Source of the DNA: a virus
IMG/VR virus record: IMGVR_UViG_3300032893_000006
Coordinates: 1-64,000 of that record
DNA length: 64,000 nt
Direction: 5' to 3' (one strand)
The translations under genes and the position numbers were made by a program. Shown piece after piece: positions 7,815-26,452 of the stretch (position 1 is its first letter; every line of letters begins with the position of its first letter). Under the pieces are notes generated by a model. It searched no databases. It had not been told where the DNA came from and saw only the letters and a list, made by a program, of their open reading frames with translations.

Positions 7815-8063
7815 ATGGGCATAGTACCTGAGCAGATCAAGTGCGACCATCCGGGTTGCAACGTCACTCGGCAAGAGGTCAATCACTGGTTTGCAGTTGA
7901 AGTAGATGAGGGGAAAGCGGTGCACATCTACGAATGGGACTATGCTGTGGCGGCGAAGAGGCTGAAGCGTTGCAAACATTTCTGCGGCGCTGCTCACGCT
8001 GTGCATCATATCAGCATGTCGTTAGGTGTAAGGACGTCATCTTCGGAGGAGCAGATTTTATGA
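7815..8063 (+). CDS. Small zinc-binding hypothetical protein
   Basis: CDHPGC ... HFCG.AH. Confidence 0.6.
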   Translation: MGIVPEQIKCDHPGCNVTRQEVNHWFAVEVDEGKAVHIYEWDYAVAAKRLKRCKHFCGAAHAVHHISMSLGVRTSSSEEQIL

Positions 8064-8317
8064 TTATGGAACAAGAGCCTATTCTGGATGAAGGGCAAGT
8101 TCTTTGTGTGCTGGACGAGAGCGGCGACACGCGAATGCAGTGGGATAAAAACGACCCAGTGCAGGTTGCAAAGGCTGAGGCTCGGTTCAACGAACTCAAG
8201 GCCAAGGGCTATCTCGGCTACAGCGTCAACAAAAAAGGCGACATGGGAGAAGTGCTGAGCGCTTTCGATCCCAAGGCCGAGAGAATCATCATGCATACAC
8301 AAATGGTGGGGGGATAG
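8060..8317 (+). CDS. Small protein ending in Gly-Gly (candidate ubiquitin-like), paralog of 23287-23646
   Basis: C-terminus FDPKAERIIMHTQMVGG*; SD GGAGGAG. Confidence 0.65.
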   Translation: MIMEQEPILDEGQVLCVLDESGDTRMQWDKNDPVQVAKAEARFNELKAKGYLGYSVNKKGDMGEVLSAFDPKAERIIMHTQMVGG

Positions 8318-8318
8318 C

Positions 8319-8744
8319 ATGTGTCTTTCATCTGTCATCGAGACGTGCGATCATCCATCCGATGTCATCATCGACGGATGGAAAGAGATCGACGCGAAGA
8401 ATCCGCGCTTCATGTTTAAGCAGAACGGAAGCTACGACATCCCCTTCGATAAGTGGATTACAGCAACAGACGAGCACGCGCCGACTGGCATCAAGGCGAG
8501 CGATGGCCAAACGTACGATCCCGGTTTCCATGCCTACGCCGACGAGAAGGAAGTAGACACAAAGCGTATGCAGCGAGTATTTCTGCGCGGCGTCACCTGC
8601 ATCGGGAAGCAAGGTGGCAAGAGAGCGGTGATTGCTCGCCAGATGTATCTTCCCTCGAAAAATAACGGCTGGCCACCGAAGCCCGATGAGGAAAACAAAT
8701 CGCTCATGGACCGCGTGAAGAACGTCTTGCCGGGGAATGCCTGA
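8319..8744 (+). CDS. Hypothetical phage protein
   Basis: 141-aa ORF, tightly packed. Confidence 0.6.
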   Translation: MCLSSVIETCDHPSDVIIDGWKEIDAKNPRFMFKQNGSYDIPFDKWITATDEHAPTGIKASDGQTYDPGFHAYADEKEVDTKRMQRVFLRGVTCIGKQGGKRAVIARQMYLPSKNNGWPPKPDEENKSLMDRVKNVLPGNA

Positions 8745-9523
8745 TGCCGATCCTCGAAAAAGAAAAAGTCATCTCTCCGGTGATTGCACCCCTACCGGAT
8801 GACGGGGCCATGTATAGCCTCTTGGGAGGAGTGGACTACGCTACGAACGCGGGGATTACGGTGGGAGCCGTGATGACAGGGGGGAACTTATCGGCAACGG
8901 TCCTCACTCTCAGCGATTTAACTCGCATGGTAGATCAGTTCCAGCAAACTATCTATACTTCGAGTGGCGCTCAGACAGCGCTTGGCCAGTCCCTCCACTA
9001 TCCAACAATCATCCCGAATTCTTTTGGGGCTCAGACTCAATATCAGGTGGATGGTTGGTACACCAGCATCGGGAGCCTATATGGGGCGATGCAGTACCAG
9101 ATCAACCAAGTGTCCAATGTCTGGACGAACATTGTCACAGCGGGTTTTGGCTGGTCCAGTTTTGCGACTCCTGAGGAGCTTGCAGTTCATCAGGAAAGAG
9201 AGGCCGCACGTGCTGCAAAGTTCGCCGCCGCCGAATCCCGCGCCGAGCAATTGATGCTCTCGCTTCTGATGCCGGATCAGGTACAACAGTACAAAGATCA
9301 CGGCTATTTTGAAACTCTGGTGGACGACCGTGTATACCGCATCAAAAAAGGCAGGGCCGGAAACGTTGAGTTGATTGTCAAGGGGAAGCCAGCGATGCGT
9401 TACTGTGCCCATCCACTCGACTGGACACCAGCGCCGGATGCAATGATCGCGCAATTTTTGATGTTGAAAACCAACGAGAAAAAGTTCATCGAAACAGCAA
9501 ACAAGACTCAACTGGCAGCTTAG
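8744..9523 (+). CDS. CxHP-motif protein, paralog of 23646-24413
   Basis: C-terminal domain Q..Y...GYF...YRIKKGR...YCAHPL...P..D...A....E..F. Confidence 0.7.
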   Translation: MPILEKEKVISPVIAPLPDDGAMYSLLGGVDYATNAGITVGAVMTGGNLSATVLTLSDLTRMVDQFQQTIYTSSGAQTALGQSLHYPTIIPNSFGAQTQYQVDGWYTSIGSLYGAMQYQINQVSNVWTNIVTAGFGWSSFATPEELAVHQEREAARAAKFAAAESRAEQLMLSLLMPDQVQQYKDHGYFETLVDDRVYRIKKGRAGNVELIVKGKPAMRYCAHPLDWTPAPDAMIAQFLMLKTNEKKFIETANKTQLAA

Positions 9524-20783: not shown

Positions 20784-20969
20784 GTGCGAACGGTCATGAG
20801 AGCTAAACCGCAGTCCGAAGAGTACGAGAGGTTTGAAGGGCTTCTCGGAAAAGTTCTAGCAGTACCGAAAGCAGAGATAAGCAGACGAATAGAAGAGGAC
20901 AGGCGGGACAACCCTAAATCCTCTTCCCACGTCGCTGCCTCTCAAACCAAGAGGGCCGATCAAAGCTGA
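20784..20969 (+). CDS. Small protein convergent with the IS1595 transposase
   Basis: EEYERFEGLLGKVLAVPKAEI; overlaps the transposase stop. Confidence 0.55.
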   Translation: MRTVMRAKPQSEEYERFEGLLGKVLAVPKAEISRRIEEDRRDNPKSSSHVAASQTKRADQS

Positions 20970-21934
20970 CCACTCTGGGTTTTTCCGGTCAGTTCTGCAT
21001 AAGTCAATCTCTTGCCCTCAATTTGCGATACTGCCAGCGCGAAGCGATCTGCGTCGGTCAAAGGATTGTCTTTCGTGGCGCGGTTGTTGTAGCGGAAAAC
21101 CTGCTCACTCAAGTACTGATCGAGATGGAAAGGCTCAACTGCAACGTAAGTGCCTTTCAGAGTCCTCTTGAGCAGCGCCCAGAAGTTCTCGATTCCCTGA
21201 GTGTGAACCTGTCCGCGAACGTACTCTTGCGAGTGGTTAATGACCTTGTGAACGTAGTTCCTATCGAGTCCCTGATAGCCCACATGTTCATCGGTGTAGA
21301 CCTTGGCAAAGGGAGTCACGTTTTTGAGGATGGTGTCTTGCAAGGTTGCGCGGGTGACATTGGGAACCACCTTGGCGCGGACCTGGCGAAGTTCCCGATC
21401 CAAGATGCCATGAACCGCAGTCTTTGCGATGTAATGGCTCTTATTGCGGTCGATCGCATACTTCTGGCGCTGCTTGCGGTTCATCTTCACGGGATTGGGG
21501 CCGATGAAGGCCTCATCGGATTCAACCGGACCACCAAAGCCGAACTTATGCTTGCGGTCATCCTTCAATGCCTCTCTGAGGCGGTGCAGCATGAACCAAG
21601 CTGACTTCTGAGTGACGCCGATATCCTTCGCAAGCTCATAGGAGCTAATGCCGTTCTTGCAGTTCGCCAAGAGCCACATGGCAACCAGCCATTTATCGAG
21701 CGCGATGGCAGAATCTTCGAAGATGGTTCCAACCTTCACAGAGAACTGCTTGCCACAATCCCGGCACTGCCAGCGCTTCTGGTTGGCAAGCCAGTGCTGC
21801 CGATCCTTCTTGGCGTCACACTTGGGGCAAACGGGACCGTCGGACCATTTCAGACCGGCCACGGTATCGATGCACACTTGAGCGTCAGAGAAGTATCTGA
21901 TTGCATCTGCAAGAGTTTTCACTTGGTTTGCCAT
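20960..21934 (-). CDS. IS1595-family (ISXO2-like) transposase
   Basis: Zn-ribbon CPKC...CRDC, VESDEAFIG, YTDE..GY, INHS.EYV.G.VHTQGIENFW. Confidence 0.93.
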   Translation of the reverse strand: MANQVKTLADAIRYFSDAQVCIDTVAGLKWSDGPVCPKCDAKKDRQHWLANQKRWQCRDCGKQFSVKVGTIFEDSAIALDKWLVAMWLLANCKNGISSYELAKDIGVTQKSAWFMLHRLREALKDDRKHKFGFGGPVESDEAFIGPNPVKMNRKQRQKYAIDRNKSHYIAKTAVHGILDRELRQVRAKVVPNVTRATLQDTILKNVTPFAKVYTDEHVGYQGLDRNYVHKVINHSQEYVRGQVHTQGIENFWALLKRTLKGTYVAVEPFHLDQYLSEQVFRYNNRATKDNPLTDADRFALAVSQIEGKRLTYAELTGKTQSGQL

Positions 21935-21985: not shown

Positions 21986-22137
21986 AATCGGTGTCGGCGA
22001 TAGCGAAGCCAAGGCTCTGGTAAAGAGAGCCGCAGTTAGTGCCTCGACGATCACACCGTCAAGCGCTGGCAGCGCAGCACGTCTATAACGCTCTATAGGA
22101 GGGGCCTTTGCGCCCCTCCGTGAGCCCGGGGGAATCG

Positions 22138-23271
22138 ATGAGCTACGCATTTTTGATTGCAGGTCTTGGCTTTGGGGACGAGTCGAAGGGGGCCACGGTC
22201 GATGCGCTCTGCCGTGCGCTCCCGGTCGACTTGATTGTGCGCTATAACGGAGGCTGTCAAGCGGCCCACCACGTGGTTCTGGAAGATGGCCGTTCACATT
22301 GTTTTTCTCAGTTCGGTGCCGGAATGCTGGCGCGGCCAAACATCAAAACGTTCCTATCGAAGTACATGTTGGTTGAACCGTATTCCATGATGAACGAGGC
22401 AGAAGCGCTGTCGACGATGACTCCAGACGTGTGGGGACGCGTCGCCGTCGACAAAAATGCTGTCGTGGTTACGTTCTTCCATCAGCACCTGAATAGGCTG
22501 AGAGAATGTGCGCGTGGCGCAGATCGTCATGGAAGCTGCGGTAGGGGTATAGGTGTCGCTCGCGAGATGCATCTAAAGCATGGAGACAAAGTTCTACTTG
22601 CGGGCGACTGCAAAAACGCGACCACAGTTTACGAGAAGTTGATGTTTACGATGGAAGAGTTAGAGCCAGAAATTAGTGAATTGCGCGACAAGGTTCGAAG
22701 CCGATACAACAGGCTGCACGATCTTGAAATGGTGGAGTCTTCCGCGCAAAAATATCTCGAATGGCCAGCAAACATCGTCGACGGATTCGAACCTCAAGAG
22801 ATGATGATATTCGAAGGCGCACAAGGCGTAATGCTGGATGAGAAGTATGGGACCGCACCGCACAACACGTGGACCAACACCACATTTGAGAATGCAGATG
22901 CGATGCTCGATGAGGCGGGGGTGAAGGAGCGCCACAGGATCGGATGCATTCGGACTTATCACACTCGCCATGGCCAAGGTCCATTCCCCACGGAAGATGC
23001 AAACCTCGATCTACCAGAGTTGCACAACGGCAACGAGGGATTCCAAGGTGTGTTCCGTGTAGGGCATCTGGACTTAAATCTCGCCAAGAGAGCTATCAGT
23101 GTGTGTGGAGGAATCGACACGCTCGCAATCAGCCACATGGACTATCTGCATCGTCTGGGATGGGCCGAGAGCGACTTCATAGCCTCGGTGAGCGCCAATC
23201 TCAGAACACACATTGGGATGCTTGGAAGAGGCCCTACCGCGCAAGACAGGACGGTCTCGGTTTCAGCGTAA
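22138..23271 (+). CDS. Divergent adenylosuccinate-synthetase-like (PurA fold) protein
   Basis: GFGDESKG, RYNGG...H, GSCGRGIG, FEGAQG..LD, TRHG.GPFPTE. Confidence 0.85.
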   Translation: MSYAFLIAGLGFGDESKGATVDALCRALPVDLIVRYNGGCQAAHHVVLEDGRSHCFSQFGAGMLARPNIKTFLSKYMLVEPYSMMNEAEALSTMTPDVWGRVAVDKNAVVVTFFHQHLNRLRECARGADRHGSCGRGIGVAREMHLKHGDKVLLAGDCKNATTVYEKLMFTMEELEPEISELRDKVRSRYNRLHDLEMVESSAQKYLEWPANIVDGFEPQEMMIFEGAQGVMLDEKYGTAPHNTWTNTTFENADAMLDEAGVKERHRIGCIRTYHTRHGQGPFPTEDANLDLPELHNGNEGFQGVFRVGHLDLNLAKRAISVCGGIDTLAISHMDYLHRLGWAESDFIASVSANLRTHIGMLGRGPTAQDRTVSVSA

Positions 23272-23286: not shown

Positions 23287-23646
23287 GTGATAATCGAAAT
23301 CCTCAACAGCTTTTCTGGCGACGACAAGCACGAGATTGACACCGAGAAGGACGATGGCCGCGTACAGGCCGCGAAGCTAGTCGACGATCTGATTCGGTCG
23401 GGGTCGGCTGTTTTTCTCGAACGCGAGGTGAATGGCGAGACCTATACGTACCGGGTGACAGGTTACGATCCGGTAGCGAATAAGCTCACCATTCGTCTGG
23501 ACGCACAGCACGTAGAAGATGCTGCAATTGAACACGCGCCACGCAGGCGCGGCAGGCCGAAGGGAATACCGCGCGGCCAGTCGTATGGCAGAGTGAGTCC
23601 AGAGTCTGGACGTACGGTCGCTGTAGCTCCACGGAGCGGTGGCTAA
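23287..23646 (+). CDS. Small protein ending in Gly-Gly with an AT-hook-like insert
   Basis: SGD...D...V.A, YDP.A, PRRRGRPKG, C-terminus VAPRSGG*. Confidence 0.65.
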   Translation: MIIEILNSFSGDDKHEIDTEKDDGRVQAAKLVDDLIRSGSAVFLEREVNGETYTYRVTGYDPVANKLTIRLDAQHVEDAAIEHAPRRRGRPKGIPRGQSYGRVSPESGRTVAVAPRSGG

Positions 23647-24413
23647 TGGCGACGGTTCCTGCAATACCTGAAAAGCTTACGTGGGACGACGTCCGCGCCG
23701 GAGTCGCAATGCTAGCGAGGCAGCGCGGCTGGCACCATGGTGTCCCGATTATGAGTATCTTCGATCAGAGTCGTCGCATCATTCTGGCAAAGGGATGCCC
23801 ACTTTCTGACGTTCATGGCCACGACACGCCGATCTCGATGGACGGGCAAACACGGGTCCATGTCTGTCAAGTGAGCGACGTCGACGAGGCTCAAGACGAG
23901 CCATATGTCGTCAACATGTGGAAGACCACGCCCAAGACGATTGCAGTCGGGAAGTATTCGAAAGGCGCTGTCTGTTTCAAGAGTGACGGCACAAGAGAGC
24001 GACTCGAAATGTATCTCTCGTCGCTTCTCTGTCAGGCTGGCGCAGTCGACGCAGAAGCAGAACTGCACGCGATGGTCTCGTTGTTGAAGAGACTCAATCG
24101 CAATCAGCGTGACAGCTACATCCTTGGCGGCGCGTTTCCTGAAACGAGCAAGAGGTCCGGCGTGACATACATCTTCAGAAAGGGGAGGCCGACGCTTGCG
24201 TTGAAAATAGAAAAAGTGGAGGGCGGAGAGAAGCGCCATTTTCTAGCCGCGTTATGTTCGCATCCGCTTGCTTGGTTTGAGAACACGTTCGTAGGAGCTT
24301 ATCCGCCATCGGACGAGGTCTTGGCCAATCTTCTTTCGGTGCGAGCAGACGAGCACGCATTCTGGAAGAAGAGCCATCAGCATTCTCTCGATGATCCAGC
24401 AGCAGGAGTTTAA
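23646..24413 (+). CDS. CxHP-motif protein, paralog of 8744-9523
   Basis: Q.DSY...G.F, YIFRKGR, LCSHPL, PPSDEVLA.LL....E..F. Confidence 0.7.
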   Translation: MATVPAIPEKLTWDDVRAGVAMLARQRGWHHGVPIMSIFDQSRRIILAKGCPLSDVHGHDTPISMDGQTRVHVCQVSDVDEAQDEPYVVNMWKTTPKTIAVGKYSKGAVCFKSDGTRERLEMYLSSLLCQAGAVDAEAELHAMVSLLKRLNRNQRDSYILGGAFPETSKRSGVTYIFRKGRPTLALKIEKVEGGEKRHFLAALCSHPLAWFENTFVGAYPPSDEVLANLLSVRADEHAFWKKSHQHSLDDPAAGV

Positions 24414-25753: not shown

Positions 25754-26452
25754 CTAAGTTGTGCCTGAGTTCATTTCGTTTTGGGACTGTTTTTGACGTG
25801 CAATGATCTTCGCGACTGTGCTGCGATGCCATGGCCCTCCTGAGCGCGTTTTAAGGCTCGTGGAATTCATCTGAGCAGCGATCTGTTGGCAGGTCATTCC
25901 CGATTGGAATTTGAGGCTGGTAATGAGGCTGAGCGCAACCTCTTCTCCCTCCTTTTCGCCGAACGCGCGACGGCCTTCGCACTTTCCATTCTTCCGGCGC
26001 AGGCGCTCCCGGGCTCCCCGGAGTTTGAGGACGGTTACGCAGCGATCAAATTCAGCGATTGCCGCGAGTATTTGCCGAATGAGCTTGGCGGTGGGGTTTA
26101 GGTCGTCACCTGCGGTAAGGTCTACGCCACCGGACGCCGCCACAACTCGAACGCCGATTTTTTGGAATTCTCGGACGATGACTTCGGCGACGATCATGTC
26201 GCGCGCTAGGCGGTCGCTCGACTCGACAATAACGAGCCCAATGCCGTTGGCTTGAATAAACTGCATACAAGCCGACAGCCCCTCCCGGTTTTCCAATTCC
26301 ATTTTTCCAGTAACGCCTTCATCGCGAAATTCAGAAACCACTTCGACGTCGTTGTTGGAGGCATATTTGATTATGACTTCTCGTTGTCTGTCCCACGTAT
26401 CGCCTAAAATCTGGCCATCGCCGGAGCATCGCATGTAGGTTGCAGCCTTCAT
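25754..26452 (-). CDS. Serine recombinase (resolvase-type with a short recombinase domain)
   Basis: YMRCS...Q, ESSDRLARD, C-terminal IA..MN...T..G..W..STV.KI. Confidence 0.85.
   Translation of the reverse strand: MKAATYMRCSGDGQILGDTWDRQREVIIKYASNNDVEVVSEFRDEGVTGKMELENREGLSACMQFIQANGIGLVIVESSDRLARDMIVAEVIVREFQKIGVRVVAASGGVDLTAGDDLNPTAKLIRQILAAIAEFDRCVTVLKLRGARERLRRKNGKCEGRRAFGEKEGEEVALSLITSLKFQSGMTCQQIAAQMNSTSLKTRSGGPWHRSTVAKIIARQKQSQNEMNSGTT

Follow-up and report, generated by a model that had tools for sequence, protein, structure and literature searches.

In the window analysed here (64,000 nucleotides, the first 64 kb of the 134,337-bp virus record IMGVR_UViG_3300032893_000006, which is complete by CheckV), two gene units each encode a small protein ending in Gly-Gly (GG-A and GG-B) and, downstream of it, a larger partner (partner A and partner B) whose C-terminal domain carries an invariant Cys in a Cys-x-His-Pro loop. 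We tentatively read this pair as a phage tagging unit of the ubiquitin-like protein (Ubl) and conjugating-enzyme (E2) kind, cut to two proteins and dependent on an activating enzyme (E1) of the host. This reading is the simplest account that makes use of all the conserved features, since it would explain together the terminal Gly of the small protein, the lone invariant Cys of the partner, an E2-shaped predicted fold, the predicted docking of the tail on the Cys, the strict coupling of the two genes and the variable N-terminus of the partner. A first-pass annotation of the window, made from the letters alone, had proposed a duplicated conjugation or sulfur-carrier module in four open reading frames (ORFs), and these four, both small ones Gly-Gly-ended, are confirmed in the sequence (Table 1).

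The Gly-Gly ending is conserved to a high degree in both small proteins. All 33 database relatives of GG-A (57-81% identity) stop exactly at Gly-Gly, and the motif VAP[RV][SA]GG is invariant in the 51 database relatives of GG-B, 48 of which end at it and three of which are extended (GGSYGD, GGHDGN and one extension of ~65 aa). In 47 further viral loci retrieved with GG-A, the tail reads GG in 46 and AG in one, and rare GGSR and ...PG variants occur among the small proteins of related loci. As for the background, related loci contain 1056 ORFs of 40 aa or more, of which 14 close with Gly-Gly, and these are mostly the small-protein gene itself. Being invariant in relatives and rare among background ORFs, the ending is not a product of chance; the first-pass annotation had named a lack of conservation among homologues as what would speak against its proposal, and the conservation held. 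Both small proteins thus carry a free C-terminal glycine at or near the protein end, as do Ubl and ThiS-MoaD modifiers. As far as the aligned sequences go, two barely related families have an invariant Gly, and an almost invariant Gly-Gly, right at the C-terminus. Known Ubls have a fixed last Gly and tolerate change at the position before it, and some are made as precursors. The pattern in GG-A and GG-B matches this, with a fixed last Gly, variants before it and occasional extensions.

The pairing of the small protein with its partner is equally strict. Among the 47 viral loci of the GG-A search, 46 have a Cys-domain gene next on the same strand, and the contig of the 47th stops 192 nt after the GG gene. 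When the ORFs within 3 kb on each side of these loci were clustered, only the GG-A and partner families were common to all; an accessory protein beginning with Met-Cys-Leu (hereafter the MCL protein) is present, between the GG gene and the partner, in 7 of the 47, and no other coding-strand family in more than 7. The converse search started from the partner and gave 5 close and 16 more distant viral loci; wherever the DNA reaches, the gene immediately upstream of the partner is of the GG-A type, with two exceptions: a 933-aa fusion protein, in two near-identical records, and one contig of a bacterial metagenome-assembled genome (MAG). GG-B and partner B, in turn, are adjacent in all four genomes having them; in one of these (L004, G003) the A module is followed by the B pair at a distance of ~500 bp. 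The first-pass annotation had expected the two families to co-occur, and they do so essentially without exception, in 46 of 46 extendable loci, in the converse search and for the GG-B pair. By gene order, then, the unit is an obligate two-gene module.

The gene junctions point in the same direction. GG-A starts with an ATG 9 nt 3′ of a GGAGGA Shine-Dalgarno sequence, overlapping the stop of the preceding gene; its reading frame closes with ...MVGG-TAG, the MCL gene opens one base later, and the stop of the latter overlaps the ATG of partner A (TGATG). GG-B, 15 kb away from the GG-A unit, starts with GTG and closes with ...RSGG-TAA, and its stop overlaps the ATG of partner B (TAATG). To judge from these overlaps, the genes within each unit are translationally coupled. 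The small protein had been described as lying upstream of its partner at both loci, which is correct, except that in locus A the 141-aa MCL gene intervenes. The description as a duplicated module must in turn be corrected: the two copies are old paralogues and not the outcome of a recent duplication, because their small proteins can hardly be aligned and other phages have separate orthologues of each pair.

That both partners share a domain, as was first noticed by eye, is well borne out. Their last ~100 residues are common (BLASTP E = 1e-4), and a single domain profile matches exactly the two copies in the genome (E = 9e-48 and 1.5e-35), with no other match. In an alignment of 140 sequences, Cys72, Pro80 and Asp83 (domain numbering) are invariant, the Pro and Asp thus following 8 and 11 residues after the Cys, and Asn58, Gln88 and Asn104 are nearly so; the Cys is likewise kept in all 46 downstream partners of the GG-A search loci. 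The first-pass annotation had taken both the Cys and the His for invariant. The Cys is (140/140), but His74 is present in only 133 of the 140 sequences, being replaced by Leu five times and by Asn and Gln once each, and the Pro of Cys-x-His-Pro in 137; a catalytic Cys/His dyad is therefore unlikely. In E2 proteins the His of the His-Pro-Asn (HPN) motif is structural, so that a non-essential His fits a protein of the E2 type. Hypervariable sequence with much Ser, Thr, Asn, Gly, Trp and Tyr makes up the N-terminal half of each partner.

Structure models lend support to a tentative assignment of the partner domain to the E2/RWD/UEV-like fold class. The AlphaFold2 model built on the 140-sequence alignment (predicted local distance difference test score, pLDDT, 96.9) opens with a long helix and a short one, continues with a four-strand meander and the Cys-x-His-Pro loop, and closes with two helices and a short final strand. 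For comparison, a UBC-like fold has a helix at the N-terminus, a meander of four strands, a tightly turning loop and helices at the C-terminus. Its best VIA-align matches are E2, RWD and UEV (UBC-like) domains, with low Z of at most 5.6, and ~33 of the 50 matches listed are E2, RWD, UEV or FANCL-type domains. Among those listed are Ubc9, E2S, UBE2E1, Ube2W, Tsg101, Vps23, VPS37A and the E2 part of bacterial Cap2, and BubB and several E2s also figure among the structural matches. An E2-like partner was one of the outcomes suggested beforehand, and it is the one that the models favour. Foldseek against the PDB gave no match at E up to 0.001. Among bacteria, E2-like proteins in which a conserved His follows the conserved Cys on its C-terminal side have been described previously (Iyer et al., 2006, PMC1779556, Table 1, row 6d).

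Moreover, the Gly-Gly tail is predicted to dock at the Cys-x-His-Pro site, a point that the first-pass annotation had suggested checking. The prediction, made for the A pair (partner A domain with GG-A) with our own alignments as input, scored 0.69, the best of three controls reaching 0.02; the 0.69 mark is attained by 58 of 80 solved complexes and by 2 of 110 mismatched pairs, which is only a rough calibration when own alignments are used, and the score itself is a model confidence and not a measurement. Three runs agree in at least 98% of the contacts, with a partner pLDDT of at least 79. The predicted interface sets domain residues 72-80 (with Cys72, His74 and Pro75) and 83-91 against residues 77-85 of the GG-A tail, and includes the conserved Gly-Asp turn of GG-A; the modifier-like tail would in this way be held at the Cys. 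Recall of a known complex by the model is unlikely, because neither protein resembles a solved complex by sequence; a sequence search of solved structures gave no match.

These features can be arranged into a sequence of steps. The small protein would be made with a free, or occasionally trimmed, C-terminal Gly-Gly, and would bind the UBC-like domain of the partner, its flexible tail lying on the loop with the invariant Cys. The terminal Gly would then be activated by an adenylating enzyme not encoded by the phage, most plausibly a ThiF/MoeB-type E1 of the host, after which the partner Cys would accept the small protein as a thioester and pass it to an amine or thiol of a target chosen by the variable N-terminal part of the partner; the thioester, the host E1 and the target are elements that we infer. 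ThiF-family genes were detected in all 14 control bacterial and archaeal genomes, and a host activating enzyme would therefore be generally on hand. Since the phage has no E1, the activation of the glycine, if any, would have to come from the host or from something not visible.

In a subset of the modules, an additional player could enter the scheme. The homologues of the MCL protein all begin with Met-Cys-Leu, and are placed between the GG gene and the partner in loci L002-L005 and after the partner in L021; besides the second-residue Cys, they conserve W21-K22, G69-F70-H71 and W118-P119-P120 (numbering of the window protein). No family, fold or solved relative was found for this protein, and its matches in the ESM Atlas are noise. 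The invariance of its N-terminal Cys suggests a nucleophile or a dedicated acceptor, to which the tag might be attached as in native chemical ligation, by a thioester exchange and a subsequent S-to-N shift. The complete scheme, a tagging system widespread in large environmental phages in which the two orphans act as Ubl and E2, the sulfur-carrier E1 of the host is hijacked, the partner N-terminus selects the substrate and the MCL Cys is the acceptor, strikes us as somewhat unlikely when all its parts are taken together.

Several results weigh against the Ubl/E2-like reading. The lack of an E1/ThiF or JAB gene, noted for the window at first pass, extends to the 134-kb genome, where neither a ThiF-family nor a Prok-JAB gene was found. 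No cognate E1 accompanies the unit in operon or genome, and there is no third conserved gene within 3 kb in the 47 loci; nor do E1, E2, Ubl and deconjugating peptidase occur together, as they do in Bil, Bub and CBASS-Cap2. A ThiF gene is present in 3 of 17 related records and adjacent to the unit in one only, locus L007, which shows no small gene ending in GG and is the single case of an adjacent E1 found. In that locus (L007:348-2109, on a contig binned with a Synergistetes MAG) the domain carries Cys-x-Gln-Pro and the ThiF-family E1 lies two genes downstream (E = 5.5e-52). A free carboxylate needs ATP-dependent activation before it can be transferred, and the reading presumes a host E1 that would accept the Gly-Gly tail. 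As for the partner, the UQ_con, RWD and Prok-E2_B models gave no match in the genome at E up to 10, and no sequence match links the domain to the RWD, UQ_con or Prok-E2 models; a search of 268 Synergistota genomes and of the control genomes gave no Prok-E2_B either. The Cys stands two residues before His-Pro, unlike that of classical E2s, which follows HPN by ~8-10 residues, and in Cys-x-His-Pro the residue following the Pro is not Asn.

The unconfirmed beta-grasp of the small protein belongs to the same side of the balance, with mixed evidence on its fold. A beta-grasp had been anticipated, and neither Foldseek nor VIA-align nor a profile comparison with ThiS/MoaD confirmed it: no ubiquitin, ThiS or MoaD chain is listed for GG-A by the two structural searches, and the ThiS model (PF02597) has no match in the whole genome at E up to 10. 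Even with the threshold relaxed to E = 10, Pfam has no match for the window proteins or for a diverse set of 13 GG-A members. With hhalign, GG-A reached a probability of at best 2% against 26 ThiS/MoaD sequences drawn from bacterial genomes, the alignment being confined to the 12-residue tail, and no sequence or profile homology to the ThiS-MoaD family (PF02597) was found. The tails themselves look alike: distant GG-A members end in E-[RK]-I-I-[LMF]-A-P-P-M-x-G-G and the 26 ThiS/MoaD sequences in D-x-V-x-[IV]-F-P-P-[IV]-x-G-G. The AlphaFold2 model of GG-A, of moderate quality (pLDDT 70.8), predicts beta-beta-alpha-beta-beta-beta plus a tail, an element order which is that of ThiS. Mean-field couplings, from a trimmed alignment of 88 sequences and of low power, are weak; they link b3-b5, b3-b4 and, weakly, b1-b5, which a beta-grasp sheet would also give.

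How alike the two small proteins are to each other was overstated at first: a weak profile signal extends over the SGD...helix region (hhalign probability 19%, E = 1.2e-3, 30 columns), but BLASTP gives E = 0.23 and the sequences are barely alignable. On this evidence GG-A and GG-B are probably the same kind of protein, homology not being proven. The nearest ESM Atlas clusters of GG-A are ~82% viral, and the matches are unnamed viral clusters. In GG-B, a linker (23560-23610, residues ~92-108) is strongly basic, with Arg-Gly-Arg-Pro-Lys-Gly (PRRRGRPKGIPRG), and may resemble the AT-hook DNA-binding motif.

Other explanations of the pair must be weighed against tagging. The partner could bind without catalysis, its UBC-like domain being a silent reader of the Gly-Gly tail in the manner of UEV and RWD domains, and the complex could serve as a regulator or as a decoy against host defence; the decoy would be directed at anti-phage systems based on E1 and E2 (type II CBASS Cap2, Bil, Bub), for example through its look-alike C-terminus. 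Non-catalytic RWD and UEV domains do reach scores as good as those of true E2s, the unit has no linked gene for an E1 or a peptidase, and in L002 (5446-5742) a Tad2-like Thoeris anti-defence domain (PF11195, E = 2.6e-20) directly follows the partner, which places the module there in an accessory or anti-defence neighbourhood. Nevertheless, a lone Cys kept in 140 of 140 sequences amid varying neighbours is hard to explain by binding alone, no PADLOC model matches, and the domain, with its 7,879 clusters, is more widespread than would generally be expected of a counter to rare defences, so that we hold a silent reader or decoy to be unlikely. Still less can be said for a cysteine peptidase that trims after Gly-Gly or deconjugates the small protein, the pair being then an enzyme with its substrate. 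The Cys, His and Asp are indeed close in sequence (C-x-H-P-x4-P-x2-D) and some members carry residues after GG (GGSR, GGSYGD, GGHDGN and the ~65-aa extension), but the seven Cys-keeping sequences with Leu, Asn or Gln at the His position exclude an essential base there. Locus L101 (C-A-L-P), without the His, keeps both the Cys and the GG tail, nearly all small proteins already end at GG and leave nothing to trim, and the fold matches are E2/RWD/UEV domains and not peptidases; we regard this explanation as very improbable.

A sulfur-carrier pair of the MoaD-MoaE or ThiS-ThiG kind would place the chemistry elsewhere. The GG protein would be thiocarboxylated by MoeB/ThiF of the host and a sulfurtransferase, and would deliver its sulfur in a pocket of the partner, by way of a Cys persulfide or an acyl-disulfide, to modify a nucleic acid or a metabolite. 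The tails of distant members resemble ThiS/MoaD ends; moaD and moaE are likewise an adjacent pair whose E1, MoeB, is encoded elsewhere, and one locus has its ThiF gene beside the Cys-domain gene. Against this, the tail is the only local profile match, the ThiS hidden Markov model (HMM) and the profile comparison finding no homology beyond it, and the UBC-like partner has no likeness to MoaE, to ThiG or to PP-loop enzymes. A hypervariable, low-complexity N-terminus would be unusual for a metabolic enzyme, and neighbourhood clustering showed no cysteine desulfurase or rhodanese linked to the module. The idea therefore appears to us distinctly improbable.

Searches of sequence collections place the unit among viruses and largely outside named families. 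Pfam, PHROGs, NCBIfam and PADLOC have no family for any of the five module proteins (the PADLOC models matching none of them), and no Pfam family covers the domain in the 140 members. The partner-domain profile gathers 7,879 metagenomic clusters (50% identity) from a set of 1.84 billion representatives, and 2,952 of these matches have an E of 1e-10 or below. A narrow pattern scan found a single small contig in 185,579 species genomes and, by the same pattern, 16 viral contigs; from these counts the unit looks viral. In GenBank phages, tblastn with the partners gave no match and with GG-A two weak matches only, Virus Rctr197k and an uncultured phage. Rctr197k (KX853510, L024:2848-6019) is the only named record in the GenBank phage collection with the unit: its GG-A-like protein has only one Gly at its end (...VPSTIPG), and after it come two Cys-x-His proteins without the Pro. 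A BFVD search with the partner domain returned two unnamed viral proteins, presumably these same two, and a 397-aa protein of Agrobacterium phage Atu_ph07, which a profile search of the Atu_ph07 genome did not locate. In a 435-kb phage (L019:1493-4294, near-identical to L020) the domain is the C-terminus of the 933-aa protein mentioned above, which has no Pfam match and no small GG gene upstream, and may represent a fused or alternative architecture.

Table 1. Features of the two units in the window, with positions, strand and the evidence or landmarks for each.
Feature	Positions	Strand	Evidence or landmarks
GG-A small protein, 85 aa	8060..8317	+	ORF with Shine-Dalgarno; C-terminus ...IIMHTQMVGG
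Accessory MCL protein, 141 aa	8319..8744	+	Homologues only in a subset of modules
Partner A, 259 aa	8744..9523	+	Alignments, AlphaFold2, VIA-align, complex prediction
Partner A, variable low-complexity N-terminal part	8744-9190	+	
Partner A, conserved domain, UBC-like by model	9191-9520	+	Cys221-x-His223-Pro224, Pro229, Asp232
GG-B small protein, 119 aa	23287..23646	+	~75-aa core, basic Gly-Arg-Pro linker, tail ...VAVAPRSGG
Partner B, 255 aa	23646..24413	+	BLASTP to partner A and profile match
Partner B, N-terminal domain of its own type, no known family	23646-24044	+	
Partner B, C-terminal Cys-x-His-Pro domain, same as in partner A	24045-24410	+	

Around the B pair, the neighbourhood includes genes of other kinds. 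An adenylosuccinate-synthetase-like (PurA-like) gene (22108-23271; PF00709, E = 5e-52) ends 15 nt upstream of GG-B and also matches PHROG 1211, there named 2-aminooxy adenylosuccinate synthetase. The block containing this gene and the GG-B pair is flanked on one side by an IS1595-family transposase (20960-21934, minus strand; PF12762, E = 4.6e-36) and on the other by a serine recombinase (Resolvase; 25754-26452, minus strand; E = 2.3e-22). The PurA-like gene was considered as a substitute for the E1 and discarded, being present in only 5 of 16 related records and missing from complete module-bearing genomes; it is not a constant neighbour either, since in 2 of 4 genomes only does it immediately precede GG-B. 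The PspA-like cassette downstream was likewise dropped as a linked component, a PspA-looking gene having been identified, by eye, only in the close relative L002.

Bacterial Ubl conjugation has so far been shown as an anti-phage weapon of the host (CBASS Cap2, Bil, Bub), and in each case the operon itself encodes the E1. The unit described here puts modifier-like and E2-shaped genes on the viral side, in thousands of protein clusters without a name in the databases, and a full-text literature search turned up no publication about phage Gly-Gly proteins with an E2-like partner. If the pair does tag proteins, it would be the first such system of phages, would imply that a housekeeping E1 borrowed from the host can serve an E2-like step, and would offer a simple two-protein model for how E2 chemistry arose. 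If it acts instead as a decoy or reader, it becomes a candidate counter-defence.

The nearest comparison is with the bacterial operons themselves, Bil being operon type 6d of Iyer, Burroughs and Aravind (2006; PMC1779556) and Bub having been described in PMC11601596. As in Bil, Bub and Cap2, a glycine-ended small modifier-like protein stands beside a protein with a predicted UBC fold and a conserved Cys; the E2-like proteins of type 6d also have a conserved His C-terminal to the Cys (PMC1779556), and both Cap2 and BubB appear among the structural matches of the partner domain. Unlike the phage unit, which has neither, the bacterial operons invariably include an E1 gene and, in most cases, one for a JAB or other peptidase; they are cellular and serve defence, whereas the unit is viral, matches none of their sequence models and has a small protein that is not a recognisable beta-grasp. 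In phages lambda and T1, tail assembly protein I (Ubl) and protein K (JAB plus NlpC/P60) similarly place a glycine-ended Ubl-type protein beside an enzyme that is predicted to have it as substrate (PMC1779556). That pair, however, belongs to a tail module and includes a metallopeptidase, whereas the present one lies among early or accessory genes, is UBC-like by model and lacks JAB.

With the sulfur carriers and their kin (ThiS, MoaD, CysO, TtuB, Urm1 and SAMP; PF02597), the small proteins share their size, a free Gly-Gly, a hydrophobic last strand and a Pro-rich tail. Furthermore, in the sulfur carriers that work with MoaE, ThiG and CysM, the tail inserts into the product of the neighbouring gene, as is predicted here by the model, and the E1 may be encoded elsewhere. 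They differ in that no HMM or profile homology connects them, and in that the partner is UBC-like and not a synthase, with a variable N-terminal region. Reliance on an E1 of the host, finally, is known from eukaryotic viruses, as with the ubiquitin-conjugating enzyme of African swine fever virus, the ubiquitin of baculoviruses and the ubiquitin and E2 genes of giant viruses. There as here, the virus would bring the modifier and/or the E2 and leave activation to the host; but the genes of the eukaryotic viruses are clear captures from their hosts, whereas the phage proteins are orphans in sequence and their presumed E1 would be of the ThiF/MoeB type.

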